From Pelagibacterales bacterium SAG-MED31 (GTDB taxonomy: Bacteria > Pseudomonadota > Alphaproteobacteria > HIMB59 > GCA-002718135), in assembly GCA_014653715.1 (NCBI GenBank), contig JACWEB010000001.1, forward strand, positions 84,798 to 148,797: a DNA stretch of 64,000 nt, in the 5' to 3' direction. Position 1 is the stretch's first letter, and every line of letters begins with the position of its first letter. The position numbers and the translations under genes are program-made. The notes beneath the pieces are model-generated. The model was not told the origin of the DNA, searched no databases, and saw nothing but the letters and a program-made list of their open reading frames with translations. Positions 15,789 to 41,079 of the stretch are shown here, piece after piece.

Positions 15789-15806
15789 ATTACAATTTAA
15801 TTACAA
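15789..15806 (-). promoter_or_regulatory. Pho-box-like phased direct repeat upstream of phoB
   Basis: The minus strand reads TTGTAAT-TAAA-TTGTAAT (7+4+7, 11-bp phase). It fills the phoU-phoB spacer, abutting the phoU stop codon (15807-15809). It lies only 23 nt from the phoB ATG, so promoter geometry is tight. Confidence 0.45.
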
Positions 15807-26535: not shown

Positions 26536-27096
26536 TTAGTTTGCAGATGCTTGAAATGAATTTTCTACGTATTTTCTGAAATGCTCCACAGACGGTGTTT
26601 CTTTATTAAGTATTTTTGCCTGATCATCATAACGACGCATTTCAACGGCTTCTTTCATCTGAGGTTTATTGATAAACTCCTCTGCTTCCTCTTTTGTGAA
26701 AATACCACCCTGTACTTTAAGTGACTCTTTTGATGCTTCAGATAGTTGATCATAGTACCCATCTTCTACAGCCGCCAAATATCGCTTTGATGCAACGTGT
26801 GCTCGAATAGGAAGTGTTACTTCTTCACCAAAATATTTTGACAAATAATCGGCCCCTAAATCTTCATGCACGCCATCTTTTCCCTCATGAATAGGATCTT
26901 TATCTTCATATATTAGATGACCAATATCATGAAGTAATGCAGCTGTAATAAATGCGTCTGATTTATTATTTTGCTCAGCTAATTCAGCACATTGAAGAGC
27001 GTGTTCTAACTGGGTAACATCTTCATTCCCATATTGAATATCAGCACCTTTTATCTTAAGTAAATTCAAAAGTTTATTAACGATATTGTTTTTCAT
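26536..27096 (-). CDS. HD-domain protein of the phosphonate-associated PhnZ/TmpB type (putative C-P cleaving diiron oxygenase)
   Basis: 186 aa. The ligand pattern is H32 ... H56-D57 ... H77 ... H100 ... D157, the H/HD/H/H/D series recalled for PhnZ. The Y22-x2-E25-x6-H32 spacing equals the Tyr/Glu/His spacing I recall for PhnZ. Phosphorus-gene context. Confidence 0.6.
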   Translation of the reverse strand: MKNNIVNKLLNLLKIKGADIQYGNEDVTQLEHALQCAELAEQNNKSDAFITAALLHDIGHLIYEDKDPIHEGKDGVHEDLGADYLSKYFGEEVTLPIRAHVASKRYLAAVEDGYYDQLSEASKESLKVQGGIFTKEEAEEFINKPQMKEAVEMRRYDDQAKILNKETPSVEHFRKYVENSFQASAN

Positions 27097-27995: not shown

Positions 27996-28039
27996 TTGTA
28001 ATACTTTTGTAAAAAAAATGTAATTAAATCTCTTGTAAT
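27996..28039 (+). promoter_or_regulatory. Cluster of Pho-box-like repeats upstream of phnS
   Basis: TTGTAAT (27996), TTGTAAA (28007) and ATGTAAT (28018) are in exact 11-bp phase. A fourth TTGTAAT lies at 28033. The phnS ATG is at 28097, preceded by GGGAGG. Confidence 0.55.
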
Positions 28040-28096: not shown

Positions 28097-29116
28097 ATGA
28101 AAAAAATAACTACTATAATAAGTTTTATAAGTGTATTTTTTTTAAATTTAGTAAATGCTAATGCTGGCTCTTTAACAGTGTACACAGCAATTGAAGCAGA
28201 AGATTTAAAAAGATATGCTGCGACTTTTAATGAGGATCATCCAGATATAGAAATTAATTGGGTTCGTGACTCAACTGGAATTGTTACTGCTAAATTATTA
28301 GCAGAAAAAAATAATCCGCAAGCAGATATTATTTGGGGATTAGCCGGAACAAGTCTTATGCTAATGAAAGGTGAAGGAATGTTTGAGCCTTACTCTCCAA
28401 AAGGCATAGACAAACTTGATCCAAAATTCCGTGATGGTGATGAGCCTGCTTCATGGACAGGTATTGATGCTTGGGTTGCTGCTGTATGTGTGAATACTGT
28501 TGAGATGGCAAAACATGGTTTCTCAATGCCTTCTTCTTGGGAAGATTTGACTAAACCTGAATATGCAGGACATGTAGCAATGCCAAATCCAAATTCATCA
28601 GGAACAGGTTTTTTAGATGTTTCAAGTTGGTTACAAATTTTTGGTGAAGATGGTGGTTGGGACTTTATGGATAGACTTCATAATAATATTTCTCACTACA
28701 CTCACTCAGGTTCAAAACCTTGTAAGCAAGCTGCTTCAGGAGAAGTTCCAATAGGAGTATCTTTCGCATTTAGAGGTGCAAGATCTAAAGCAAAAGGTGC
28801 GCCAATTGAAATTATTGTTCCATCAGAAGGTGTTGGATGGGAAATGGAAGCTAACGCAATACTTAAAGGTACTGATAACTTAGAGGATGCTAAAACTTTA
28901 GCAGACTGGGCTATTTCTAAAAAAGCAATGGAGATGTATAATGTGGCATATGCTGTTGTTGGAATGCCTGGGGTTGCAAAACCCGTTGAGCATTTTCCTC
29001 CAGCATTGTTAGGCGCAATGATCAAAAATGATTTTGAGTTTGCAGCAACAAATAGAAAGGCTATCCTTGCTGAATGGCAAAGTAGATACGATTCTAAATC
29101 AGAGCCAAAAAGCTAA
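28097..29116 (+). CDS. phnS: Putative 2-aminoethylphosphonate ABC transporter substrate-binding protein (PhnS2-like)
   Basis: Signal peptide, and an Fbp-like binding-protein fold. The block WVRDSTGIVTAKLLAEKNNPQADIIWGLAGTSL resembles the AEP-binding subfamily as I recall it. It is followed by the matching ATPase, fused permease and aminophosphonate oxidoreductase. Confidence 0.7.
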   Translation: MKKITTIISFISVFFLNLVNANAGSLTVYTAIEAEDLKRYAATFNEDHPDIEINWVRDSTGIVTAKLLAEKNNPQADIIWGLAGTSLMLMKGEGMFEPYSPKGIDKLDPKFRDGDEPASWTGIDAWVAAVCVNTVEMAKHGFSMPSSWEDLTKPEYAGHVAMPNPNSSGTGFLDVSSWLQIFGEDGGWDFMDRLHNNISHYTHSGSKPCKQAASGEVPIGVSFAFRGARSKAKGAPIEIIVPSEGVGWEMEANAILKGTDNLEDAKTLADWAISKKAMEMYNVAYAVVGMPGVAKPVEHFPPALLGAMIKNDFEFAATNRKAILAEWQSRYDSKSEPKS

Positions 29117-29131
29117 TTTAATCTAGAAAAT

Positions 29132-29164
29132 AAAAAGCTTACAATTAATTTTGTAAGCTTTTTA
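29132..29164 (+). terminator. Hairpin terminator/attenuator after phnS
   Basis: AAAAAGCTTACAA-TTAATT-TTGTAAGCTTTTT forms a 13-bp stem including A/T ends, followed by a T-run. It starts 16 nt after the phnS stop. Confidence 0.7.
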
Positions 29165-29177
29165 TTAATGTAATTTT

Positions 29178-30239
29178 ATGGAACAATATTTATCAGTAAA
29201 AAATATCAATAAGTACTTTGGGGATTTCCAAGCACTTAAAAATGTAAGTTTTGATGTTAAAGAAGGTGAGTTTGTATGCATACTAGGTCCTTCAGGATGT
29301 GGAAAAACAACTCTACTAAGAGTAATTGCAGGGCTAGAGAGTCAATCAGAGGGATTAATTAATCAAAACAATAAAGACATATCTTTACTTCCTCCTGATC
29401 AAAGAGACTTTGGAATTGTATTTCAATCTTATGCTTTATTTCCAAACTTAAGCGTAAAAAATAATATATCCTTTGGATTAAAAACAAGAAAAAAAAATAA
29501 AGAAACAATTGATAAAAGGGTTGATGAATTATTAGAATTAGTTGGTTTAAGTGATCATATAAATAAGTTTTCCGCTCAATTATCCGGTGGCGAACAACAA
29601 CGTGTTGCATTAGCAAGAGCTTTAGCGCCTTCCCCAGGATTATTACTTTTAGATGAACCTCTTTCAGCATTAGATGCAAAAGTAAGACAGCATTTACGGT
29701 TAGAAATAAAAAATCTTCAAAGACAGTTAGGCGTGACTACAATTATGGTTACTCATGATCAAGAAGAGGCATTAACTATGGCGGATAGAATCATATTAAT
29801 GAATAATGGAGTTATTGAACAAGAAGGATCACCTCAAGATCTGTATTCAAAACCAGAAACTGCGTTTTCTGCAAATTTTATAGGAACAACAAATTTATTT
29901 AAAGCTAAAAGAATTTCTGAAAATAGTCTTGAAATTAATGGATCAATATTAGAATGTAATGAAAATATAAAAGATGATTTATTAACAATAACAATCAGAC
30001 CAGAGGATATTAAGATTTGTGAAACTGGTAGTGAAAAAAATATTTTAAAAGGGACAATAAAAGAGCTTGAGTTTTTAGGGTCAAATATTAGAGGGCATAT
30101 AGAAGTAGACTTCAAATCAGAAAAGACAAATGTTATTTGTAATTTTGCCTCTGAATATATTTTAAATAATAATATTCAAAATAATTCTTCTGTTAGCATT
30201 TCACTACAACCGCATGCACTTAAAGTTGTTAAGGCATAG
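29178..30239 (+). CDS. phnT: Putative AEP ABC transporter ATP-binding protein (PhnT2-like)
   Basis: GPSGCGKTT, LSGGEQQRVALARAL, LLLDEP, and a C-terminal TOBE-like regulatory domain. Confidence 0.7.
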   Translation: MEQYLSVKNINKYFGDFQALKNVSFDVKEGEFVCILGPSGCGKTTLLRVIAGLESQSEGLINQNNKDISLLPPDQRDFGIVFQSYALFPNLSVKNNISFGLKTRKKNKETIDKRVDELLELVGLSDHINKFSAQLSGGEQQRVALARALAPSPGLLLLDEPLSALDAKVRQHLRLEIKNLQRQLGVTTIMVTHDQEEALTMADRIILMNNGVIEQEGSPQDLYSKPETAFSANFIGTTNLFKAKRISENSLEINGSILECNENIKDDLLTITIRPEDIKICETGSEKNILKGTIKELEFLGSNIRGHIEVDFKSEKTNVICNFASEYILNNNIQNNSSVSISLQPHALKVVKA

Positions 30240-30247
30240 ATTTAACT

Positions 30248-31915
30248 ATGAAAAAAAGTAGAGACGATTATCTAACCATATTTTTTATATCAATTATAGG
30301 TATTTATATTTTGATAGCGCTTGCTTTTCCGATGTATGCAATATTATCAAAAAGTGTTGAAAATAAAGATGGTATTTTTATAGGTTTTGAAAACTATCAA
30401 AGTTATTTTTCAAATCCTGCCTTAGTATATTCAATATATAACAGTTTATTTATTTCCATTATTACAATGGTTATAACAATATCTTTAGCATTTGTTTTTG
30501 CCTATGCACTTACAAAGAGTTGCATGATAGGAAAAAGTGTATTTCGATCAATCGCAATGATCCCTATTTTAGTGCCATCTCTTTTATCTGGTATTTCTCT
30601 TATTTATCTCTTTGGCAAACAAGGAATATTTAGAGATTTAATGATGGGTTACGATATCTATGGTCCTATTGGTATCATTATAGCTGAAGTTTTTTATACC
30701 TTCCCACATGCATTGCTTATTATTATTACAGCATTATCAATAGGGGATGCAAGGTTATACGAAGCAGCAAAAGTTTTACGATCAAAATCTATTCGGACTT
30801 TTTTTACTGTTACCCTTCCTTCAGCAAAATATGGTGTTATCAGTGCAGCATTTGTGGTTTTCACTTTAGTTATTACAGACTTTGGAATTCCTAAAGTTAT
30901 AGGCGGGCAATTTAATGTTCTTGCAGTTGATGTATACAAGCAAGTAATAGGGCAACAAAATTTTGAAATGGGAGCTGTTGTAAGTGTTGTGCTTATTTTT
31001 CCCGCTCTTTTAGCTTTTGTAGTCGATCGTATTGTTCAAAGAAAACAAGTAGCTATATTAACCTCTCGCTCCGTTGTGCATGAACCAAATAAAAGTAAAA
31101 AATTTGATTTAATTATGCTTATTTATTGTTCTGTTATATCCGTGTTTATTCTTACTATTATAGGGATGTGTTTATACGCAAGTCTAGTTACGTTTTGGCC
31201 CTACAATTTATCTCTTTCATTAGATAACTATCAATTTGATTTAATGGATGGAGGAGGATGGGATTCATATTACAACTCAATTCGTATGGCTTGTTACACA
31301 GCTTTTTTTGGAACAATTGTTGTCTTTACTGGAGCATATTTTGTAGAAAAATCACGAAGTGTTAAGACAGGACGCTCAATTCTTCATTTATTATCTATGA
31401 TGCCTATGGCTATTCCAGGTTTAGTGCTAGGACTTGCTTACATTTTCTTTTTTAATCATCCTGATAATCCATTAAATTTTATATACGGCACAATGGCAAT
31501 ATTAGTAATTTGTACAATCACTCACTTTTATACTGTATCTCATTTAACAGCACTAACATCATTAAAACAAATAGATAATGAATTTGAGCATGTATCGTCT
31601 TCACTTAAACAGCCTTTTTATAAAACTTTTTTTCGTGTAACAGTACCAATTAGTCTTCCAGCAATTTTTGAAATTGGTATTTATTTCTTTGTAAATGCAA
31701 TGACTACAGTATCAGCTGTTGTTTTTCTTTATAGCTCTAAAACAAATTTAGCATCGGTTGCCGTTTTAAATATGGATGATGCTGGAGACATTGCGCCTGC
31801 TGCTGCTATGGGAATGATGATTTTTTATACAAATGCTGCAGTTAGAATTATTTATGTACTGATAACTAAGAAAATATTAGTTAGATTTCAAAAATGGCGA
31901 ACAAAAACTGTATAA
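30248..31915 (+). CDS. phnU: Putative AEP ABC transporter fused two-domain permease (PhnU2-like)
   Basis: 555 aa with two six-helix permease modules, as in the fused iron(III)/AEP-type permeases. Confidence 0.7.
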   Translation: MKKSRDDYLTIFFISIIGIYILIALAFPMYAILSKSVENKDGIFIGFENYQSYFSNPALVYSIYNSLFISIITMVITISLAFVFAYALTKSCMIGKSVFRSIAMIPILVPSLLSGISLIYLFGKQGIFRDLMMGYDIYGPIGIIIAEVFYTFPHALLIIITALSIGDARLYEAAKVLRSKSIRTFFTVTLPSAKYGVISAAFVVFTLVITDFGIPKVIGGQFNVLAVDVYKQVIGQQNFEMGAVVSVVLIFPALLAFVVDRIVQRKQVAILTSRSVVHEPNKSKKFDLIMLIYCSVISVFILTIIGMCLYASLVTFWPYNLSLSLDNYQFDLMDGGGWDSYYNSIRMACYTAFFGTIVVFTGAYFVEKSRSVKTGRSILHLLSMMPMAIPGLVLGLAYIFFFNHPDNPLNFIYGTMAILVICTITHFYTVSHLTALTSLKQIDNEFEHVSSSLKQPFYKTFFRVTVPISLPAIFEIGIYFFVNAMTTVSAVVFLYSSKTNLASVAVLNMDDAGDIAPAAAMGMMIFYTNAAVRIIYVLITKKILVRFQKWRTKTV

Positions 31916-31928
31916 TTATATTACTTTA

Positions 31929-33344
31929 ATGGATTTACATTATCAATCACCTTGGTTTAATGAAGCTTTAGCAAAAGAAGAAAATTTAAAAATTAGTGAA
32001 TTAAATTTAAATCTTTCTTGTGACGTTTGTATTATTGGGGGTGGGTTCACAGGTCTGTGGACTGCAATTAAAATTAAAGAAAAAAAACCCAAACTAAATA
32101 TTATTTTAATTGAAAAAGATTTATGTGGAAGTGGTGCTTCAGGAAGAAACGGTGGTTGTATGATACCTCAATCAACAAAATTTCAAGGAATAAGAGATGT
32201 GGTTGGTGTTAATGATGCAAAAAAAATGGTTTTGTCAACTGAAGCTGCAGTAAAAAATATAAAAGATTTTTGTTCTGAAAATAAGATTAATGCAGAAATA
32301 AGAGATGATGGCGTTTTATACGGTGCTACAAATAAATTCCATCAAGGGGCTTTTGAAAATCTTATAAGAGATTTAAATCAACATAATATAAATAGCTGGG
32401 AAAGATTATCAAAAGAAAAAGTCCAAGACTTAACAAAATCAAAAAAATTTATTGATGGTTATTTTTCACCAATAGGCGGAAGTTTACAGCCAGCTATTCT
32501 TGTAAGAGGTCTGAAAAAATTAGCTGAAAATATTGGCATTAAAATTTTTGAAAAAAGTACTGTAACTTCTTATAATTATAAAAAAGAGATACTTGTAAAA
32601 ACTAAGAATGGATCAGTATCTTGTGAGAAATTAGTGTTCGCAATCAATGCATGGACTCCAAAATTTTTACCTTTTTTATCAAGAAGCGTAGTTTTAGTTT
32701 CTTCCGATATGATAATTAGTGAACCAATAAAACACCAATTACAAAATATCGGTTTAACTAATGGGCTTGTAATATTAGACTCTAATTTATTTACTCATTA
32801 TTCTAGAACAACTCCAGATGGAAAAATTATCTTAGGCAAGGGAGGAAATACTTTTTCTTTTAGAAATAAAGTTATTGATTCATTTGATGGTCCGAGCACT
32901 ATTGAAAAATATTTAAAAAAATCACTAGTGAGTTTCTATCCTTCGCTCAAAGAAGCAAAAATTACTGCATCTTGGAATGGTCCTTCTGAGAGAACAAAAA
33001 CTGGATTTCCTTTTTTTGGATACCATCCAAAAAATAAAAATATTTCATATGCTTTTGGTTATTCAGGAAATGGCGTTCTTACGTGTCATGTTGGTGGAGA
33101 AATATTAAGCAGTATGACTCTTGATGAAAATAATAAGTGGACTGATAGTAATTTTTGTAAAGGACCATTAAAAAACTTTCCTCCTGAACCATTTAGATGG
33201 TTAGGCGCCATGATAATAAGAAATGCTGTACGAAGAAAGGAAAATGCTCAGGAAAAAGAGATAAATCCAAATTGGATTGATAAACAGCTTGCAAAACTTG
33301 CTGCTTCTGTTGGAAGAGTCGATCTTAAGAAGAATAAAAATTAA
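31929..33344 (+). CDS. FAD-dependent aminophosphonate oxidoreductase (DAO family)
   Basis: Dinucleotide fold VCIIGGGFTGLWTA, 471 aa. It sits directly after phnS/T/U, the context of the family annotated as putative aminophosphonate oxidoreductase (PbfC/PbfD-like). Confidence 0.65.
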   Translation: MDLHYQSPWFNEALAKEENLKISELNLNLSCDVCIIGGGFTGLWTAIKIKEKKPKLNIILIEKDLCGSGASGRNGGCMIPQSTKFQGIRDVVGVNDAKKMVLSTEAAVKNIKDFCSENKINAEIRDDGVLYGATNKFHQGAFENLIRDLNQHNINSWERLSKEKVQDLTKSKKFIDGYFSPIGGSLQPAILVRGLKKLAENIGIKIFEKSTVTSYNYKKEILVKTKNGSVSCEKLVFAINAWTPKFLPFLSRSVVLVSSDMIISEPIKHQLQNIGLTNGLVILDSNLFTHYSRTTPDGKIILGKGGNTFSFRNKVIDSFDGPSTIEKYLKKSLVSFYPSLKEAKITASWNGPSERTKTGFPFFGYHPKNKNISYAFGYSGNGVLTCHVGGEILSSMTLDENNKWTDSNFCKGPLKNFPPEPFRWLGAMIIRNAVRRKENAQEKEINPNWIDKQLAKLAASVGRVDLKKNKN

Positions 33345-33559
33345 TTCTTATTTTTTTTAATAGCACTTATGTGTTGATTAAAGTCAGGATTTTGCATCAA
33401 TAATTTACAGCGTTCAAAATGCTCTATTATTTAAACACAAAAACCTTTTAAACCTTCAACTTTCTAAAATATATTTTGTAAATATATTTGATATTAATTT
33501 TTTTATAATATTTTTTTGTTGACCATTAGCTATTATAATTATTAAACATAAATATTAAA

Positions 33560-34324
33560 ATGAAATTAAAAAATAAAAAAGTAATTATTACAGGTGGTGC
33601 TTCTGGAATGGGAAAAGCTACTGCAGAATTATTTTGTCGTGAAGGCGCAATAGTTGCCATCATGGATATTAATAAAGCTGAAGGGGAAAAAACAATTAGT
33701 CAAATTAATTCAAATATTGAAAAGGCATTTTTCTTTCATACTGATTTAACAAAATCTAAAGAAGTCAAAAAATCAATTAATCAAATTATAGATTTGTTTG
33801 GGACAATTAATATTCTATTTAACCATGCTGGAACAATAATAGTTAAGCCCCTTCATGAATCTTCTGAAGAAGACTATGATTATTTAATGAATATTAACGT
33901 AAGATCTGCTTTTCTTGTGTGTAACGAAATAATTCCTTCAATGTTAAAAAATAAAGGAGGTAATATAATTATTACTTCATCAATTGGGGGAGAAAAAGGT
34001 TTTGCTTTGGAATCTTTATACTGCATGACAAAGGGGGCTGTTTTACAATTAGCTAGATCAATTGCTGTTGAATATAGAGATCAGGGAATTAGATGTAATG
34101 CAATTTGCCCAGGATTTGTTAAAACTAATCACGGATTAAGAGAAATAAAAGAATTAGATGAGCAAGGACAAAATTGGAATGAAAACGATTTGCATTCTGT
34201 TCAGGGGAGAATATGTAAACCAGAAGAGGTTGCATCTGCAGTTTTATACTTAGCGTCTGATGATTCTAGTTTTGTTAATGGAACTGCTTTGTATGTTGAT
34301 AATGGTTGGTATGCTAAAGGATAA
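33560..34324 (+). CDS. Short-chain dehydrogenase/reductase (SDR)
   Basis: TGGASGMGKA cofactor motif, catalytic YCMTKGA (YxxxK), NAICPG. Confidence 0.8.
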   Translation: MKLKNKKVIITGGASGMGKATAELFCREGAIVAIMDINKAEGEKTISQINSNIEKAFFFHTDLTKSKEVKKSINQIIDLFGTINILFNHAGTIIVKPLHESSEEDYDYLMNINVRSAFLVCNEIIPSMLKNKGGNIIITSSIGGEKGFALESLYCMTKGAVLQLARSIAVEYRDQGIRCNAICPGFVKTNHGLREIKELDEQGQNWNENDLHSVQGRICKPEEVASAVLYLASDDSSFVNGTALYVDNGWYAKG

Positions 34325-34327
34325 TAA

Positions 34328-35338
34328 GTGAATCAAACACCTAAACTAATTTGTAAAAATGTTTGGAAATTATACGGAGATAATCCAAAAGAATTTTTAC
34401 AAAGTCACAATAATAATCCTAATAAAGAAATAATAAAAACAGGTGGTTATATTCAGGCAATTAGAAATGCTTCTTTAGAAGTTTATGAAAATGAGATTCT
34501 TGTAATAATGGGACTAAGTGGATCAGGAAAATCAACTTTAGTAAGGTGTATGTCAAGATTAGTTGAGCCAACCATTGGAGAAATATTTTTTGAAAATATT
34601 GATATGGGAAAATTATCAAAAAATGAATTAATTGAAATTAGAAGACATAAGATGGGAATGGTGTTTCAGCACTTTGCACTTTTCCCTCATAGAACTGTCA
34701 TTGAAAATATTGCTTTCCCTTTAGAGATTCAAGGTATAAGCAGAAGAGATAGAGAAAAATCTGCTTTAGAAATAATTGAGTTAGTAGGCTTACAAGGAAG
34801 AGAAAATTATTTTCCTAAAGAGCTTTCAGGTGGACAGCAGCAAAGAGTTGGTATTGGACGTTCATTAGCTGTCAAACCAGAGTTATGGTTTTTAGATGAA
34901 CCTTTTTCTGCTCTTGATCCCTTAATAAGAAAAGAGATGCAAAATGAATTTTTAAAAATTCAAAACACATTAAAAAAAACTATTATTTTTATTACTCATG
35001 ATTTTGATGAAGCAATTAAATTGGCAGATAGAATAATAATTATGAACGAAGGCAGAATAGTTCAAATTGGAAGTCCTGAAGATTTAATTATGAAGCCTGC
35101 AGATGATTATGTAAAGGAATTTACTGAAGATCTTCCAAGAGAAAGATTATTGTCTGTAAAAAGTATAATGAGTAATGAAAAAGATCTTAATAACTCAACA
35201 AAAGTAAATGAGGATGAAAAAATATTTTCAATTCTTGAAAAAGTTCTCTCAAAAGGTTCAGTTTCAGTAATCGATAAATCAAATAATGTTGTAGGCTCAT
35301 TAAGCAAAGAGACGGTTTCAAAATTTATTAATAACTAA
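34328..35338 (+). CDS. Quaternary-amine (ProV/OpuAA-type) ABC transporter ATP-binding protein
   Basis: GTG start 4 nt after the SDR stop. [27 protein letters not shown]. The N-terminal extension before Walker A is typical of ProV. Confidence 0.75.
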   Translation: MNQTPKLICKNVWKLYGDNPKEFLQSHNNNPNKEIIKTGGYIQAIRNASLEVYENEILVIMGLSGSGKSTLVRCMSRLVEPTIGEIFFENIDMGKLSKNELIEIRRHKMGMVFQHFALFPHRTVIENIAFPLEIQGISRRDREKSALEIIELVGLQGRENYFPKELSGGQQQRVGIGRSLAVKPELWFLDEPFSALDPLIRKEMQNEFLKIQNTLKKTIIFITHDFDEAIKLADRIIIMNEGRIVQIGSPEDLIMKPADDYVKEFTEDLPRERLLSVKSIMSNEKDLNNSTKVNEDEKIFSILEKVLSKGSVSVIDKSNNVVGSLSKETVSKFINN

Positions 35339-35464
35339 TTAAAGCAGTAATATTTATAAAATCTATATATTATTAATATAATTTATATTTTATTAGTTTT
35401 TTTTAGTAGTTTTATACAATAGTTTTATTTAGTATTTTTATATAATTAAATACTGGGAGGTAAA

Positions 35465-36412
35465 ATGATAATTCTTAAAAAGAAATTAAGTGTTTTAATT
35501 AGTTTAATTTTTATTTTATTTGCACAAAATGTATATGCAGTAGAATCAAAAGATCCTATCAAGCTCACTTTACATGATTGGACTGGTCAATTGATTACAA
35601 CGAATATTATGGCTGAAGTTCTAAAGGAAGCAGGCTACAATGTAGAACTTGTTCCAGCTGATTATATTGCACAATTTGCAGGTCTTCAAACAGGAGATCT
35701 TCATGTTGCAATGGAAATGTGGGAAACAACTGGTCGTGATGCAATTGATGAATATACTGCTGATGGAAGAGTAGTCAATGTAGGTAGTACAGGAATGGAT
35801 GCAATAGAGGAGTGGTGGTACCCTTCATATATGAAAGAAAAATGTCCAGGATTGCCAAATTGGGAAGCGCTGAATGATTGCGCAGAAGCTTTTTCTACAC
35901 CTGAAACATCTCCAAAAGGAAGATACTTAGGTGGACCTGTAACCTGGGGTGGTTATGATGATGAACGTGTTGAAGCTCTTGAGTTAGATTGGGAAGTAAT
36001 TCATGCAGGAACTGATGGAGCCCTTTTTGGCGAATTAGAATCTGCATATCAAAGAAAAGCTCCAATAATGCTTTGGGTTTATGCACCTCATTGGGCACCT
36101 TCTAAATATGATGGAGAATTTGTAGATTTTCCACCTTACACAACTGAATGTTATACTAATCCATCTTGGGGTATAAATAAAAATGCTGCTTATGATTGTG
36201 GTAAACCAAGAGGACCTATTTGGAAAGTTGCATCCAGTATGCTGAAAGATAAATGGCCCGGTGCTTATGATGCTGTAGAATCATTTACACTTGATAGTAA
36301 TGAAATGGGTAATCTTGTAGCAGCTGTTGACCTAGACGGTAATACTGTGGAAGCAGTAGTAGCTGATTGGATGTCTAATAATAAAGATAGATGGAGTTCT
36401 TGGATTAACTAA
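35465..36412 (+). CDS. Glycine-betaine-type (ProX/OpuAC-like) substrate-binding protein
   Basis: Signal peptide. The blocks LHDWTGQ, MEMWETTG and EEWWYPSY are typical of the betaine-binding family and provide Trp candidates for an aromatic cage. Confidence 0.7.
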   Translation: MIILKKKLSVLISLIFILFAQNVYAVESKDPIKLTLHDWTGQLITTNIMAEVLKEAGYNVELVPADYIAQFAGLQTGDLHVAMEMWETTGRDAIDEYTADGRVVNVGSTGMDAIEEWWYPSYMKEKCPGLPNWEALNDCAEAFSTPETSPKGRYLGGPVTWGGYDDERVEALELDWEVIHAGTDGALFGELESAYQRKAPIMLWVYAPHWAPSKYDGEFVDFPPYTTECYTNPSWGINKNAAYDCGKPRGPIWKVASSMLKDKWPGAYDAVESFTLDSNEMGNLVAAVDLDGNTVEAVVADWMSNNKDRWSSWIN

Positions 36413-36432
36413 ACCTTATAAATTTATTCTTT

Positions 36433-36460
36433 AGGGGGATATAAATCCCCCTTTTATTTT
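36433..36460 (+). terminator. Hairpin terminator/attenuator after the ProX-like gene
   Basis: AGGGGGAT-ATAA-ATCCCCCT followed by TTTTATTTT. It starts 21 nt after the stop. Confidence 0.8.
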
Positions 36461-36466
36461 TAAAAC

Positions 36467-38455
36467 ATGAAGAAAAATAAAATATCAAATAAAATTATTT
36501 TTATTTCTCTAACTATCTTAACATTTCTTTTTTATTTGTATGGTAAAGAAATAGCAAACTACTTTGACAGTAAGTGGCTAATAAAATACCCAAAACACTA
36601 TTCTTTTCCTTTTGCAATTTATACTTCATCTTTTGTCAAATGGTTAATAAATGATGCTAGTTTTGGTTTATTTTCTTTTAATGATCTTACCCGTTTTTTT
36701 GCTTGGATTATTGAGCAACCCTATAACGTAGTCTTAGCTATTTTTTCTAAAGGAATTTTAAAAGGTCAAGGTCAAGACGCGATTCAAATAATGGAACCAT
36801 TAAGTTGGATTTCAGTTGTAGGTATTTTTTTTACACTTGCACTTTATACAAGGGATAAATTTTTAATTTTACTTGTAGTTCTCTCAATTGTTTATTTAGC
36901 TGTTTTTGATCAATGGCAAAGTTCAATGATTACACTATCATCAATTATTATAGCGGTGCCAATAGGGGTGGTTTTGGGAATATTATTTGGAATATTATCC
37001 TATAAGTCAAAAATTTTAGAACAAATAATAACCCCTATTTTAGATCTTATGCAAACAGTGCCTGTGTTTGCTTACTTAGTTCCCATATTAGTTATGTTTG
37101 GGTTTGGGCCAGTATCAGCATTAATTGCTACAATAATATATGCAATGCCTCCAATGGTGAGGACGACTCTTCTCGCATTAAACAACATTGATCCGCAACT
37201 AAAGGAAAGTGGAATAATGTCAGGTTGTACAGATAGACAATTAATGTGGAAGGTGCTTATCCCTGTGTCAAAACCTACTTTACTAATAGGGGTTAATCAA
37301 GTCATTATGCTATCACTTAATATGGTTATCATAGCTTCTATGATAGGTGCTGGAGGATTAGGTTATGATGTATTAGCCTCTCTTAGAAGATTAGATATTG
37401 GAGGAGGTATAGAATCAGGTATAGCTATTGTTGTTATTGCGATAGCTTTAGATCGCTTGAGTCAATCATTCGCAAATTTACCTACTCTCTCAAAAAAAAC
37501 ACAGGAAAAATTTTTTACTAAATATAAAAAAATAATTTTCCTAGTTTTTTATATAATTGGAATTTATATATTAGGAGCTTTTTTTAATTTTTTTAAATTA
37601 TTTCCTAAAGAGTTAATGATTGATACTTCATTATTTTGGGAAGAATTAGTTAAGTATATAAATATAAATTATTTTGATAATCTAGAGAGCTTTAAAATAA
37701 CTTTGTTAACTTTTTTCATGCTTCCAATAAAAAAATTCTTTTTAGGAATTCCATGGCCATGGTTTATTTTTATTATTACAATTATTGGATGGTATTTTGG
37801 AAAAATTAAATTAGCATTACTTTGTTTAATGATGTCAATTTTTATAGTGACAACTGGTCTTTGGGAAAAAGCAATGATTACACTTTATTTATGTGGTTCA
37901 AGTGTAATAATAGCATCGATTATAGGAATTCCTCTAGGGATATGGGCCGGTTTAAGCAGAAGAGCAAATAAAATATTAACTGCTTTTATTGATACTCTTC
38001 AAACTTTACCAAGTTTTGTTTACTTAATACCTGTTGTAATGCTTTTTCGTGTAGGTGACTTTACAGCAATGATTGCTGTTATACTTTATGCGCTAGCTCC
38101 TGCAGTCAGATATACCGCTCATGGAGTAAAAAATATAAATAATCAAATTGTTGAGGCAGCATTAATAAGTGGATGTTCTCAAAGACAGTTATTATTTAAA
38201 ATTAGATTGCCCTTAGCCTTGCCAGAAATTTTACTAGGTATTAACCAAACCATAATGCTTGCTTTATCTATGCTAGTTATTACTGCATTGGTTGGAACTA
38301 GAGACCTTGGACAAGAAGTATATATAGGTTTAACTAAAGCAGATATAGGAAGGGGCTTAGTTGCTGGATTATGTGTAGCTTTTATATCTATAATTGCAGA
38401 TAGAATAATTAAGGCTGGAAGCAATAATCTTAAAAATAAATATGGAATCAAATAA
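36467..38455 (+). CDS. Fused two-domain ProW-type ABC permease
   Basis: 662 aa with two permease modules, each carrying an EAA-like region (LKESGIMSGCTDRQ and VEAALISGCSQRQ). Confidence 0.75.
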   Translation: MKKNKISNKIIFISLTILTFLFYLYGKEIANYFDSKWLIKYPKHYSFPFAIYTSSFVKWLINDASFGLFSFNDLTRFFAWIIEQPYNVVLAIFSKGILKGQGQDAIQIMEPLSWISVVGIFFTLALYTRDKFLILLVVLSIVYLAVFDQWQSSMITLSSIIIAVPIGVVLGILFGILSYKSKILEQIITPILDLMQTVPVFAYLVPILVMFGFGPVSALIATIIYAMPPMVRTTLLALNNIDPQLKESGIMSGCTDRQLMWKVLIPVSKPTLLIGVNQVIMLSLNMVIIASMIGAGGLGYDVLASLRRLDIGGGIESGIAIVVIAIALDRLSQSFANLPTLSKKTQEKFFTKYKKIIFLVFYIIGIYILGAFFNFFKLFPKELMIDTSLFWEELVKYININYFDNLESFKITLLTFFMLPIKKFFLGIPWPWFIFIITIIGWYFGKIKLALLCLMMSIFIVTTGLWEKAMITLYLCGSSVIIASIIGIPLGIWAGLSRRANKILTAFIDTLQTLPSFVYLIPVVMLFRVGDFTAMIAVILYALAPAVRYTAHGVKNINNQIVEAALISGCSQRQLLFKIRLPLALPEILLGINQTIMLALSMLVITALVGTRDLGQEVYIGLTKADIGRGLVAGLCVAFISIIADRIIKAGSNNLKNKYGIK

Positions 38456-38467
38456 ATATTACTTTAT

Positions 38468-39580
38468 TTGATCAATATGGATAAAAAGTTATTAACACCT
38501 GGACCTCTTACTACTTCACTCAGCACTAAAGAAGCAATGCTTCATGATTGGGGATCACGAGATCAAAAATTTATAGATTTAAATCAATCTATTCGCGACT
38601 CTTTAATAAAATTAATTGATGGAGAAGATAATTATCAATGTGTACCTATGCAAGGCAGTGGAACATTTGCTGTAGAGTCCATGATAAGTTCACTCACACC
38701 TAAAAATGCTCAAATTTTAATTTTAATTAATGGCGCGTATGGACAAAGAATGAAGAAAATGTGCTCCTATTTAAACAGAAATACTATTGAATATGAGGTT
38801 CCTGAACATAAACCTCATGACATAAAAAAATTAGAAGAAATAATTGATGCTAATAAAAAACTAACCCATGTTTTTGCTGTTTACTGTGAAACTACATCAG
38901 GAATCCTAAATCCAATAAATGATATTGCTAAAATAGTTGCAAAAAAAAACTTATCTTTATTTATTGACGCAATGAGTGCATTTGGCGCACTTCCACTTAG
39001 TAGTAAAAATGTTACTTTTGATGCTGTTGCCGCCTCATCAAATAAATGCCTTGAGGGTGTTCCTGGTGTTGGATTTATTTTGATGAAAAATGAAGTGATT
39101 GAAAAGGCAAAAGGAAATTGTCATTCTTTAAGCTTAGATTTGTATGATCAATGGGCAACAATGGAAAAAAATAAACAATGGCGCTTTACACCTCCAACAC
39201 ATGTTTTAGCAGCATTCAATCAAGCAATTAAAGAACATGAAAAAGAAGGTGGAATTGAGGGTCGTAACAATAGGTATAAAAATAATTGTAAGATAATATG
39301 TGAGGGAATGAAAGAAATTGGCTTTGAACAACTTTTACCAGATGAGTTGCAAGCACCTATAATTATAACTTTTAAACAGCCAAATGATCCAAACTTTAAT
39401 TTTACAGCATTTTATAATGCTCTAAGTGATAAAGACTTTCTTATTTATCCAGGTAAATTAACCGTTGCAGATACCTTTCGTATTGGATGTATTGGTAATT
39501 TAAATGATCAAGATATGAGAGATACGCTTACGTCTGTTAAAGAGGTGGTCAGCGATTTAAACATAAATTTAAAAAATTAA
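38468..39580 (+). CDS. phnW: 2-aminoethylphosphonate--pyruvate transaminase PhnW
   Basis: Close block-by-block resemblance to Salmonella PhnW as I recall it: LLTPGPLTTS..KEAML, SSNKCLEGVPG (PLP Lys), SLSLDLYDQW, KQWRFTPPTH, FRIGCIGN. The track start is TTG 38468; ATG 38477 is an alternative. Confidence 0.9.
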   Translation: MINMDKKLLTPGPLTTSLSTKEAMLHDWGSRDQKFIDLNQSIRDSLIKLIDGEDNYQCVPMQGSGTFAVESMISSLTPKNAQILILINGAYGQRMKKMCSYLNRNTIEYEVPEHKPHDIKKLEEIIDANKKLTHVFAVYCETTSGILNPINDIAKIVAKKNLSLFIDAMSAFGALPLSSKNVTFDAVAASSNKCLEGVPGVGFILMKNEVIEKAKGNCHSLSLDLYDQWATMEKNKQWRFTPPTHVLAAFNQAIKEHEKEGGIEGRNNRYKNNCKIICEGMKEIGFEQLLPDELQAPIIITFKQPNDPNFNFTAFYNALSDKDFLIYPGKLTVADTFRIGCIGNLNDQDMRDTLTSVKEVVSDLNINLKN

Positions 39581-39590
39581 AGGTAAGCTT

Positions 39591-40229
39591 ATGAGTAATT
39601 CAGATGCCGTTGAAATTCCTTTAATTAAAGCAACTAATGAATCACTAAAAGGTTATGGATATTTAATTGACTCGTATGAAGGCAGTAACATTGAAATTGT
39701 AACTTGGCCTAAACAAGGATGGCGTGAGATTGATAAAGGCACAGGCAATGAAGGTGGGAGTACAGAAGGATCCTTTGATACCTGGTGGGAAGGTAGTACT
39801 TTATGGGGGCAAAATAATGCTGTTCAACATAATAATAATGATTATGAAGTAGATGGAAAATATATACTTGGGCATGCCTTGCCTCCTGAAAGTAACACAA
39901 CTTTAGAATATTCACTTCCAGAACATATTTATATATGGCATGTTAACTATCATCCTGATGGAGGACAACTTTTCTATCCCTCAATAAAAAGTGCTTTTAT
40001 CTCTCCTTTAGCTTTACCGGGTGATGATGTGCAAGTTGGAGATTTTAAAGCTTTTTATTTTGATGGTTCACAAGGATTATATATTCATCCTAACGTATGG
40101 CATGAAGGAGTCTTTCCAATTAAAGAAAAAAGTTCATTTCAAGGTCGCCAAGGGAAAGTACATGCAAGAGTAAGTATAGACTTACAAAAAGAATTTAAAA
40201 AATATATTTATTTTAAAACTAAACTTTAA
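39591..40229 (+). CDS. Ureidoglycolate-lyase (AllA)-like cupin-fold protein, function unknown here
   Basis: 212 aa. The blocks HVNYHPDGGQLFYP and GLYIHPNVWHEGVFP resemble AllA blocks (HP.GSQ.F.P and GV.H...). Sandwiched between phnW and the metallophosphoesterase with 10-16 nt spacers. Confidence 0.45.
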   Translation: MSNSDAVEIPLIKATNESLKGYGYLIDSYEGSNIEIVTWPKQGWREIDKGTGNEGGSTEGSFDTWWEGSTLWGQNNAVQHNNNDYEVDGKYILGHALPPESNTTLEYSLPEHIYIWHVNYHPDGGQLFYPSIKSAFISPLALPGDDVQVGDFKAFYFDGSQGLYIHPNVWHEGVFPIKEKSSFQGRQGKVHARVSIDLQKEFKKYIYFKTKL

Positions 40230-40245
40230 ATTTAATTTAATTAAA

Positions 40246-41079
40246 ATGAAAATTGCACATTTCTCAGATACACATATTCATTCACAAAAAATATTAGGTT
40301 ATAATCCAGTAGAACGATTTCACTTTGCACTTGAGCATTTAAAAAAAAATCATTCTGACTCAGATATGCTAATTATATCTGGCGATATTTCACATCATGG
40401 GGTTCTAGATTCATATAAAAAATTTGATGAAATTATAGAAAAAGTTAAACTACCTAAGCATCTTTACCCTAAACTGATATTAGGTAATCATGATAATCGT
40501 GAAATTTTTAAAAATTATTTTACCAATGTTCCTATTGATGAAAATGGATTTGTTCAATATGATATTGAAATTGAAGATAAAAGATTGATTTTTTTAGATA
40601 CGAATATTCCTAAATCACATCAAGGCAGGTTCTGTGAAAAAAGACAAGCCTGGCTTAGAAAAAAAATAGAAAAAAGTATTATAAAAAATCAAAAAGTTTT
40701 TATATTCATGCATCATAATCCATTTCCACTGGTAGAATTAGACAGTGATTACATTGGGTTATTAGATAGAGATCAATTTAAGTTGATAATTAATGAGTAC
40801 AAAAATATAATAAAGCATATTTTCTTTGGACACCAACACCTAACTGTCTCTGGTAATTATTTAGGAATTTCTTTTTCTTCTCCGAGAAGCATAAATCACC
40901 CACTTGTAACTAATTTCTCAAAAGATTATAGGTTAGGGTCAGCTGATACAGATCCTAATTACAATATTATTCTAATAAATAATGATTCTATTATTGTGCA
41001 CAATGAAGATTTTTTAAAAGTCAAAATTAATTGGTTTGAAACAACACAATCAGGATGGCTAGAAGAAAATGAAGATTAA
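40246..41079 (+). CDS. Calcineurin-like metallophosphoesterase (CpdA/GpdQ/PlcP-like)
   Basis: Motifs in canonical order: FSDTHIH (DxH), SGDISHHG (GDxxxxG), LGNHDN (GNHD/E), FMHHNP, FGHQH. Confidence 0.8.
   Translation: MKIAHFSDTHIHSQKILGYNPVERFHFALEHLKKNHSDSDMLIISGDISHHGVLDSYKKFDEIIEKVKLPKHLYPKLILGNHDNREIFKNYFTNVPIDENGFVQYDIEIEDKRLIFLDTNIPKSHQGRFCEKRQAWLRKKIEKSIIKNQKVFIFMHHNPFPLVELDSDYIGLLDRDQFKLIINEYKNIIKHIFFGHQHLTVSGNYLGISFSSPRSINHPLVTNFSKDYRLGSADTDPNYNIILINNDSIIVHNEDFLKVKINWFETTQSGWLEENED

Follow-up and report, generated by a model that had tools for sequence, protein, structure and literature searches.

An optional OpuAC-type importer cassette upstream of phnW in the phosphonate island of Pelagibacterales bacterium SAG-MED31

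We consider it fairly probable that positions 33345–38476 of the window (the whole 64,000 nt stretch of Pelagibacterales bacterium SAG-MED31 DNA analysed here) form an accessory, optional cassette that occupies a variable slot upstream of an older phnW unit and imports a choline-type ligand. The accessory nature follows from two observations, namely that the phnW unit is found intact without the cassette and that the cassette is rare and also present at other sites. The cassette starts with a 5′ region of its own, carries genes for an SDR, an ABC ATPase, a periplasmic binding protein (SBP) and a fused permease, and occupies this slot in a minority of SAR11-type strains.

Organization of the locus

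The genes for the SDR, ATPase, SBP, permease, PhnW, AllA-like protein and metallophosphoesterase (MPE) are arranged head to tail on one strand within a phosphonate island (Table 1), as the original prediction had described. Its claim of minimal spacers holds for the packing before phnW, but the SDR–ProV gap is 3 nt rather than 4 nt and a spacer of 126 nt precedes the SBP gene. The permease–phnW gap also departs from the predicted 12 nt; the MDKKLLTPGP N-terminus encoded from ATG 38477 is common to all relatives, so phnW most likely starts there and the spacer is 21 nt. Locus L009 has the identical junction sequence, L010 and L013 have nearly the same one, and L095 has a spacer of 144 nt. In this arrangement phnW lacks a separate spacer, so it must be expressed by transcription that runs through the cassette. 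The hairpin between the SBP and permease genes is a probable attenuator that would set the SBP:permease ratio, and the last ~125 nt of the cassette 5′ region are kept in sister genomes regardless of which gene lies upstream.

Table 1. Features of the phosphonate island in and around the cassette (positions in the window)
Feature	Position	Strand	Remarks
PhnZ-like HD gene	26536–27096		7 kb from cassette
PhnS2-PhnT2-PhnU2 AEP-type ABC importer	28097–31915	+	TIGR03261, TIGR03265, TIGR03262, all above cut-off
FAD aminophosphonate oxidoreductase	31929–33344	+	TIGR03329 585 bits, just under cut-off 632.8
5′ region of cassette	33345–33559	+	215-nt spacer before SDR
SDR oxidoreductase (classical)	33560–34324	+	PF13561 and PF00106
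ProV/TmoV-type ABC ATPase	34328–35338	+	GTG start; TIGR01186 340.8 bits, cut-off 326.6
OpuAC-family periplasmic binding protein (SBP)	35465–36412	+	PF04069 E = 1.3e-46
G+C-rich hairpin + T-run	36433–36452	+	Between SBP and permease genes
Tandem-fused double ProW/TmoW-type permease	36467–38455	+	662 aa; two BPD_transp_1 cores
Cassette/phnW junction	38456–38476	+	21 nt if phnW starts at ATG 38477
phnW	38468–39580 (probable start 38477)	+	NF010006 519.9 bits, cut-off 296
AllA-like cupin	39591–40229	+	Downstream of phnW
Metallophosphoesterase (MPE)	40246–41079	+	NF050112 SpdA 189 bits, below cut-off; class-III phosphodiesterase-like

A PF04069 SBP, a ProV-type ATPase and a ProW-type permease are all present, as in importers of the OpuAC/ProU type (cluster F-III). 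PF04069 is the sole Pfam match of the SBP (159.7 bits, cut-off 21.2). The ATPase has 336 aa and a short C-terminus; it matches the TIGR01186 proV profile over positions 3–296 of 363, and a Pfam search found P-loop families only, with no CBS domain or C-terminal tandem CBS pair detected. The fused permease matches TIGR03416 in two stretches (411.7 bits, cut-off 363), and an NCBIfam search of the SDR gave only generic matches, all below cut-off. The module upstream of the cassette (28097–33344) is not part of it, although the predicted AEP importer is indeed there.

The binding protein and its relatives

The best match of the SBP in the PDB is 4XZ6 (TmoX; E = 3.9e-65, 36.7 % identity). This structure belongs to TmoXWV of Ruegeria pomeroyi (SPO1548–1550), the TMAO-specific ABC importer, and the window importer resembles it in having a cluster F-III SBP of the OpuAC fold, a tandem-fused permease and a ProV-type ATPase, and in being of a marine, nutrient type. 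The search for further ProVWX copies in the same genome (54 % complete) found two, giving three OpuAC systems in all: TmoXVW beside tmm/tdm on contig C34, and a ProX/DmpX-type system beside catabolic choline/betaine genes on contig C60. The window ATPase and permease are 53 % and 40 % identical to their C34 counterparts. The C34 SBP is closer to 4XZ6 (43.7 % identity) than the window SBP is, and the two are 30 % identical to each other; the window SBP is thus a TmoX paralogue, and the true TmoX orthologue of this genome is the C34 gene. Judged from its sequence, the SBP belongs to a tightly conserved sister clade of TMAO-binding TmoX.

Given the betaine/choline and tmm/tdm contexts of the two other systems, the window importer is a distinct extra system and not the ordinary betaine transporter. 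The null alternative in the original prediction, that the cell's usual glycine-betaine osmoprotectant transporter had been placed here by chance, agrees with the name in the source databases (glycine betaine/proline binding protein), but the SBP is just 22 % identical to the C60 SBP, its ATPase has no detectable CBS domains, and the cassette SBP is found in only 8 of the 116 genomes of the window's own family; we regard this explanation as extremely unlikely. ChoXWV is the choline ABC importer of Sinorhizobium meliloti, and ProU and OpuA are betaine importers whose osmoregulated members carry tandem CBS domains. The window importer is of the same ABC family, its permease scoring above the ChoW equivalog cut-off and its ATPase above that of proV, but it differs in its fused double permease, its gene order and partners, and its SBP, which falls far below the ChoX (35.6 bits, cut-off 379) and ProX (31 bits, cut-off 215) models.

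Seven residues line the TmoX pocket (W55, W102, F106, E131, W177, F220 and W222), and four of these are kept in the window SBP: E131, and W55, W102 and W177 out of the four tryptophans of the cage; F106 is replaced by Gly, F220 by Trp and W222 by Tyr. The corresponding putative pocket is W39, W86, G90, E115, W161, W204 and Y206, in which W39 (HDW) and W86 (EMW) correspond in the alignment to W55 and W102 of the cage, and E115 (within EEWWYP) to Glu131, the residue that binds the N-oxide, so that the cation-π cage suggested by the original prediction is upheld by the alignment. The Gly in place of F106 would enlarge the pocket. Unlike TmoX, the window clade has additional invariant or near-invariant residues nearby (T88, T89, R91, H209 and W210), and the neighbouring W117, W118 and G163 are likewise invariant or nearly so; altogether 15 putative pocket or adjacent residues are invariant or nearly so among 85 orthologues, and position 91 holds a conserved Arg/Lys in both this clade and its sister clade. 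The protein retains the Trp cage and the Glu whose hydrogen bond holds a ligand by its polar end, with Thr-Thr-Gly-Arg and His added. The structure model (pLDDT 67) is too poor for reading pocket geometry, and an NCBIfam search of the SBP gave no phosphonate-SBP match. We note that the invariant Thr-Thr-Gly-Arg and His by the cage could equally hold an anionic tail (phosphonate, phosphate or carboxylate).

Genomic contexts of the cassette

SBP homologues number 3768 at E ≤ 1e-20, the top 120 being 70–93 % identical, and peptide patterns drawn from the window SBP matched at least 576 stretches from genomes, taken at species level, in which a relative is encoded; the 80 best matches, which we examined, are 69–95 % identical to it. 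The clade is spread over hundreds of marine genomes, and its usual layout is DeoR / SBP-ProV-ProWW-choline-kinase-like-DMGDH-like. Among the 63 loci whose downstream flank reaches 6.5 kb or more, a choline-kinase-like (ChoK-like) gene is present in 55, a DMGDH-like demethylase gene in 52 and both in 49, a pattern with which precomputed Pfam neighbourhoods agree, and phnW is present in three. PhnW above the family cut-off is absent from 10 of 22 non-SAR11 carrier genomes, so consistent co-occurrence with phosphonate genes did not emerge. The original prediction counted orthologues in the same arrangement in phosphonate-free genomes as evidence against it, and this is largely what is seen: orthologues at 69–89 % identity, with the 15 residues invariant or nearly so, sit in operons devoid of phosphonate genes. 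The sister SBP clade (44–46 % identity) has the layout DeoR / SBP-permease-GlpABC-like-FGGY kinase-DMGDH-like, which is a like operon logic with a kinase of another type. SDR orthologues (72–94 % identity) adjoin the importer in L009, L010, L013–L015, L019 and L023, and the SDR is thus a long-term importer partner in SAR11 and MarineAlpha lineages; in L010 and L013 a divergent ChoK1-like kinase is kept beside the SDR even within the phosphonate island.

Within the window's own family, phnW is present in 96 of the 116 genomes, and the SBP adjoins it in four of the eight carriers (G000, G044, G057 and G060). In the other four (G056, G062, G104 and G108) the SBP lies elsewhere: beside sarcosine-oxidase-like genes (L011/L012), with a ChoK-like gene (L015/L107), or directly after TmoXVW/tmm/tdm, where the cassette seems to share the TmoXVW ATPase (L014). 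The phnW-AllA-MPE unit occurs without the cassette in about 90 family genomes, many of them with an HD enzyme; the arrangement in cassette-free relatives is a leftward PhnZ followed by a rightward PhnW-AllA-MPE, and in L097–L105 phnW-AllA(-MPE) comes directly after PhnZ or an FAD oxidase. In G008 the FAD oxidase is 20 nt 5′ of phnW, the layout that the window site should have without the cassette. The phnW-AllA-like-MPE segment is therefore an older, widely conserved unit, and the MPE belongs to it and not to the cassette. Four genomes of the family and a single metagenome contig show the cassette linked to phnW. This linkage is no one-off, since the linked copies (window, L009, L010, L013 and L095) diverge by as much as 18 % at the nucleotide level, and the cassette copies now elsewhere in that subclade appear to descend from a phnW-linked state.

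The phosphate-starvation island that surrounds the cassette, the phosphodiesterase-like MPE a few genes 3′ of it and the conserved Arg/Lys 91 could point to an importer of phosphocholine- or glycerophosphocholine-type esters from which the MPE frees phosphate as a phosphorus-scavenging device. We think this very unlikely, as the MPE is a resident of the older unit, the orthologous operons hold kinases and not phosphatases or GDPD enzymes, and the Pho-box-like repeat was not found upstream of the cassette (see below).

A second importer of TMAO, or of methylamines and betaines generally, that serves one-carbon/nitrogen metabolism and overlaps in part with the function of TmoXVW or of the ProX-type system, is unlikely. 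TmoX is the closest solved relative and most of its cage is retained, the partner genes include demethylases of THF-linked type, the L014 cassette adjoins TmoXVW, and a ChoK-like paralogue lies upstream of tdm in the window genome. However, three of the seven pocket residues differ and an Arg and a His are new, the SBP clade persists, strictly conserved, as a lineage of its own beside true TmoX within the same genomes, and the constant kinase and SDR partners, in place of Tmm/Tdm, suggest a hydroxylated ligand. Linkage of a window-type cassette to tmm/tdm is seen in L014 only, the tmm/tdm of the window genome sitting with the other paralogue.

Phosphonates and the probable ligand

Phased TGTAA Pho-box-like repeats are present at 27996 and 28007, and such repeats lie upstream of pst, pit, phnS2 and a ugpB-like gene, but none was found at 33345–33559, ahead of the SDR. 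The HD gene near the cassette is PhnZ-like, as originally proposed, but its product does not pass as TmpB (158.8 bits on NF049941, cut-off 300; a generic Phn-HD model scores higher). TmpA and TmpB form an oxidative pathway for 2-(trimethylammonio)ethylphosphonate in Leisingera caerulea (PMC10574752), a quaternary ammonium phosphonate that a cation-π cage could in principle bind. No TmpA was found in the island, and the only TmpA-like gene found in the 54 % complete genome is a dioxygenase beside the C60 transporter that scores 272.4 bits on NF049936 (cut-off 400) and higher on a BBOX model. Like AepXVW in many cases (PMC8316502), the window importer has phnW as its neighbour within a phosphonate island, but AepX and PhnS are PF13343 proteins, whereas the window SBP is a PF04069 protein and not of the PhnD type, and true PhnS2T2U2 is already encoded 5 kb upstream. 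Nor does the importer show the consistent co-location with phosphonate catabolic genes that marks AEP importers, given the three of 63 loci and four of eight family carriers noted above.

An importer of N-methylated or quaternary 2-aminoethylphosphonates, recognized specifically or by loose (CH3)nN+-CH2CH2-X recognition and fed either to the FAD oxidase, PhnW, PhnY and PhnA or to the HD oxygenase, would account for the tight packing before phnW and its persistence across ~18 % divergence. It would also suit the Pbf-type FAD oxidase directly upstream of the cassette in the window and L010, since Pbf enzymes oxidise N-methyl AEP (M1AEP) and N,N-dimethyl AEP (M2AEP) (PMC10590968), and the larger predicted pocket, in which T88, T89, R91 and H209 could hold a phosphonate. 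The specificity of AepX-type proteins for plain AEP is high (PMC8316502), and such narrowness leaves a possible gap for the N-methylated forms. We nevertheless judge this reading quite improbable. The same putative pocket is found in hundreds of genomes with kinase and DMGDH-like operons that lack phosphonate genes, it is hard to see what a kinase would do with a phosphonate, almost half of the non-SAR11 carriers lack PhnW, many phnW-bearing relatives do without the cassette, L009 and L013 have the cassette but no FAD oxidase, and neither the Pho-box-like repeats nor the Tmp enzymes are where they would be expected. The proposal of an importer dedicated to quaternary or N-methylated aminophosphonates is thus unsupported; the broader phosphonate reading is weakened and only partly borne out, and a role of the importer in phosphonate uptake is unlikely.

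We favour instead uptake of a choline-type ligand by an accessory cassette. Since the putative pocket residues hardly vary from one genomic context to another, all members of the clade probably bind one common ligand, and the ChoK-fold kinase, DMGDH-like THF-linked demethylase, DeoR regulator and (in SAR11) SDR partners point to a hydroxylated N-methylated ammonium compound. Our best guess is a choline-like ligand, as in ChoXWV; it would be a small compound akin to choline or the N-methylethanolamines. It speaks for this reading that choline is the second-best ligand of TmoX from TmoXWV, the TMAO importer of Pelagibacter HTCC1062 (Kd 2.5 μM; PMC8918994). The importer would be of the nutrient type, no CBS osmosensing domain having been detected, and the imported ligand would be the substrate of the SDR in this cassette or of the kinase in other operons. 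Co-transcription with phnW probably reflects the compact gene packing of SAR11 genomes and not a common pathway.

Gene order and regulatory signals around phnW

The SDR-to-permease cassette of the window is an optional copy of a widespread, uncharacterised TmoX-like importer that has landed upstream of phnW. The window covers positions 84798-148797 of contig C1 in a SAR11-type assembly of 0.94 Mb, 54 % complete and about 30 % G+C. As originally predicted, genes for an SDR, a ProV-type ATPase, an OpuAC-family binding protein, a fused permease, PhnW, an AllA-like protein and a phosphoesterase follow one another on a single strand, although the spacing needs correction: the SDR–ProV gap is 3 nt rather than 4 nt, and since MDKKLLTPGP opens phnW in every relative, its start is best placed at ATG 38477, which makes the spacer after the permease gene 21 nt rather than 12 nt. 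Genes for PhnS2T2U2, all three over the NCBIfam cut-offs, and for an FAD aminophosphonate oxidoreductase lie upstream of the cassette, with a PhnZ-like HD gene farther upstream; phnY and phnA are found downstream of the phnW unit on the opposite strand. The hairpin just past the stop codon of the binding-protein gene is probably an attenuator; a hairpin of this kind is unusual in 30 % G+C DNA.

Coordinates of the genes and sites discussed (in the window unless a contig of the same genome, C34 or C60, is named)
Feature	Position	Strand	Remarks
Spacer 5' of the SDR gene	33345-33559		215 nt
SDR	33560-34324	+	
ProV-type ATPase	34328-35338	+	TIGR01186, 340.8 bits (cut-off 326.6)
OpuAC-family binding protein	35465-36412	+	PF04069, E = 1.3e-46
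Hairpin	36433-36452	+	8 bp, G+C-rich, AGGGGGAT/ATCCCCCT, then a T-run
Fused permease	36467-38455	+	662 aa, two ProW-type cores
phnW	38468-39580	+	start most likely ATG 38477
AllA-like cupin	39591-40229	+	
Calcineurin-type phosphoesterase	40246-41079	+	
Choline-kinase-fold gene	C34:27039-27914	-	directly upstream of tdm, in the TmoXVW/tmm/tdm cluster
BBOX/TmpA-like dioxygenase	C60:8308-9447	-	TIGR02409, 308 bits; TmpA model NF049936, 272 bits; both below cut-off

Pho boxes were sought by a crude rule, two TGTAA cores in 11 bp phase. Such direct repeats at 15789, 19965, 24237, 27996/28007, 44442/45751 and 48570 mark the pst, DUF47-pit, phnS2, ugpB-like and phnA-side promoters. By this simple rule the repeat is absent from the spacer upstream of the SDR gene and also from that between PhnZ and PhnW in cassette-free relatives; as the box is missing there too, its absence is weak evidence on phosphate regulation. 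The divergent PhnZ–PhnW spacer, about 90 nt long, carries a palindrome (TTAACTTAT...ATAAGTTAA) at loci L097, L098, L100, L101 and L102, and a palindrome without the phased repeat suggests that phnZ and phnW of these relatives may be under a regulator other than PhoB. Window phnW has no spacer of this type in front of it. A sigma-70 promoter scan gave 49 sites against 46.8 expected, and is uninformative in such A+T-rich DNA.

An optional insert in the phosphonate island

Among the 116 genomes of the window's family phnW is present in 96, and the cassette binding protein in only eight, four of which (G000, G044, G057 and G060) have it next to phnW. Genomes G056 and G062 carry the cassette elsewhere (loci L011 and L012, 8800-13000), as a ProV–binding protein–permease copy that is 95 % identical and without the SDR gene. 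Its neighbours, from N-terminal sequences read by eye, we take to be an Ldh_2-family gene with a sarcosine-oxidase-like (SoxBDAG-like) set at one end and, at the opposite end, proline-racemase-like and creatinase-like genes, a context reminiscent of (hydroxy)proline-betaine catabolism. In G104 the cassette directly follows a TmoXVW/tmm/tdm cluster (L014), and in G108 it is accompanied by a choline-kinase-like gene (L015/L107).

Cassette-free relatives share a common order in which PhoU-like and PiT genes are followed by leftward genes for a Cys phosphatase and PhnZ, then rightward phnW, AllA-like and metallophosphoesterase genes, and farther on leftward phnY and phnA. In G008 the FAD oxidase gene ends 20 nt upstream of phnW, the layout expected with the cassette missing at the phnW site. 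Because these genomes keep the unit without the cassette, phnW–AllA–metallophosphoesterase is the old unit and the SDR-to-permease segment an optional insert. The AllA-like and phosphoesterase genes were considered as cassette members and rejected, as they remain with phnW in cassette-free relatives. The slot upstream of phnW also receives PhnS2T2U2 and FAD modules: at L009, L099 and L102 it holds an additional, diverged and differently oriented copy of PhnS2T2U2 (48-60 % identical to that of the window), so that the site evidently exchanges importer modules. The final ~125 nt 5' of the SDR gene are conserved at L009, L010 and L013 regardless of the upstream gene, and the SDR gene at L010 and L013 still has a divergent ChoK1-like kinase gene as its neighbour within the phosphonate island.

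A TmoX-like binding protein and its likely ligand

The null alternative, that this is the cell's ordinary betaine transporter, is contradicted by the two other OpuAC systems that a search for further ProVWX copies found in the same, 54 % complete genome, which thus encodes three OpuAC-family binding proteins. On contig C60 single ProW and ProV genes come after the binding-protein gene in a ProX/DmpX-type system, whose neighbours are genes for a GMC choline-dehydrogenase-like protein, an aldehyde dehydrogenase and a BBOX/TmpA-like dioxygenase. The C34 system has the same binding protein–ATPase–fused permease layout as that of the window, and since it adjoins Tmm-like flavin monooxygenase and Tdm-like genes it is TmoXVW. 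The best solved relative of the window protein is TmoX, the trimethylamine N-oxide (TMAO)-binding protein of Ruegeria pomeroyi (4XZ6, E = 3.9e-65), and its fold assignment is based on this match; in a structure model built with 30 homologues the mean pLDDT is 67, falling below 55 in the second lobe (residues 130-245), values too low for judging the shape of the pocket or for searching by fold. Identity of the window protein is 36.7 % to 4XZ6 and only 30 % to the C34 protein, while the C34 protein and 4XZ6 share 43.7 %, and the lower identity marks the window protein as a third, TmoX-like paralogue.

Residues W55, W102, F106, E131, W177, F220 and W222 make up the TMAO pocket of TmoX (PMC8918994), and the aligned positions of the window protein are W39, W86, G90, E115, W161, W204 and Y206. 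The predicted cation-pi cage and its polar-end Glu are thus retained, in agreement with the original prediction, whereas Gly replaces Phe106 and T88, T89, R91, H209 and W210 are new nearby; with the Phe replaced, the putative pocket may be larger than that of TmoX. Both the aligned and the new residues are invariant or near-invariant across 85 orthologues, whatever their genomic context, so the ligand is probably the same everywhere.

A protein search gave 3768 homologues at E <= 1e-20; identity is 70-93 % for the best 120, which belong to SAR11, Arenicellales, Granulosicoccus, Kiloniellaceae, Rhizobiales and other groups. When peptide patterns of the window protein were matched to species-level genomes encoding a relative, at least 576 stretches were found, and the best 80, at 69-95 % identity, were annotated; the clade occurs in marine alpha- and gammaproteobacteria, in hundreds of genomes, at 70-95 % identity. 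Beyond the window's sublineage the operon consists of a DeoR-type regulator gene and genes for the binding protein, ProV, fused ProW, a choline-kinase-fold kinase and a DMGDH-like enzyme (DAO, FAO_M and GCV_T domains), often with a second kinase and demethylase, and precomputed Pfam neighbourhoods give the same picture. At the 63 loci with enough downstream sequence a kinase gene is present at 55, a demethylase gene at 52 and both at 49. No characterised member of the clade was found in a literature search.

We infer that the ligand best fitting these partners is a choline- or N-methylethanolamine-type methylated amino alcohol, since the constant partners are predicted to act on hydroxyl groups (the kinases and, in SAR11, the SDR) as well as N-methyl groups (the DMGDH-like enzymes, with ETF and BHMT-like genes in one context), and DeoR-type regulators often sense phosphorylated intermediates. 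The plan is shared by a sister clade (44-46 % identity, motif W-D-T-T-A-K; L106 in G108:C4, L108 and L109), and the TmoX of HTCC1062, which has choline as its second-best ligand (PMC8918994), points the same way. The sister operon, a DeoR gene beside genes for the binding protein, fused permease, GlpA-like and GlpB-like proteins, an FGGY kinase, and GlpC-like and DMGDH-like proteins, appears to be another uncharacterised system of the 'import, phosphorylate, demethylate' kind. A TMAO-like N-oxide would be the next option; the clade's kinases, like the C34 gene upstream of tdm, match best to GntI, the N-oxide kinase of guanitoxin biosynthesis, well below the cut-off (135-157 bits against 357).

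Methylated aminophosphonates and the place of the clade

The gene arrangement around phnW had been read as an importer for quaternary or N-methylated aminophosphonates. The arrangement is real, but this attractive interpretation is mostly contradicted by the comparative context, and we regard it as improbable: phnW is present at only three of the 63 loci, and 10 of 22 carrier genomes, isolates and closed chromosomes included, have no PhnW over the family cut-off, largely the pattern set out beforehand as evidence against the prediction. The HD enzyme likewise does not qualify as TmpB, scoring 158.8 bits on that model (cut-off 300) and 206.7 on the generic Phn-HD model, and the only TmpA-like candidate found in the 54 % complete genome is the C60 dioxygenase. 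Its gene diverges from an EamA gene and from the ProX/DmpX-type system, and for the use of trimethyl-AEP or a butyrobetaine-like compound, should the cell make any, C60 would be the more natural candidate locus.

It is likewise unlikely that the importer was recruited into the phnW operon of one SAR11 sublineage to take up methylated AEPs. Its normal job would then be methylated amino-alcohol catabolism; headgroups of the form (CH3)nN+-CH2CH2-X would fit its cage, among them those of N-methyl, N,N-dimethyl and N,N,N-trimethyl 2-aminoethylphosphonate; cells would reach methylated aminophosphonates beyond the AEP-specific AepX/PhnS2 binder, and the substrates would go to the Pbf-type FAD oxidase, PhnW, PhnY and PhnA. 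Four observations keep a small probability on a phosphonate link. In a nucleotide tree of the binding protein–permease segment the phn-linked copies (the window, L009, L010, L013 and the metagenome contig L095, 82 % identical) form one clade with the relocated L011 and L012, so that the linkage is older than one recent accident. The neighbouring oxidase is of the Pbf type, whose members accept N-methyl and N,N-dimethyl AEP as oxidation substrates (PMC10590968); AepX-type binders have a narrow specificity for AEP (PMC8316502); and the invariant Thr-Thr-Gly-Arg and His of the binding protein could bind an anion. AepX itself was considered as OpuAC-like and rejected, as it belongs to PF13343.

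A correct original prediction would have made this the first importer of methylated aminophosphonates and enlarged the pool of marine organic phosphorus that SAR11 is known to be able to use; the evidence points in another direction. The lesson of the window is a cautionary one, that tight spacing and a common strand in SAR11 are weak evidence for shared function. In ocean gene surveys, binding proteins of the clade could be taken for 'TmoX' or 'glycine betaine' transporters. One such survey retrieved TmoX by profile HMM at a threshold of e-80; for the window protein against 4XZ6 the E-value is 3.9e-65. Judged by its sequences, the clade is a very widespread, strongly conserved and uncharacterised sister of TmoX, and its regular partners, choline-kinase-fold kinases, THF-linked DMGDH-like demethylases and DeoR, suggest a pathway, not described before, that takes methylated amino alcohols through phosphorylated intermediates.
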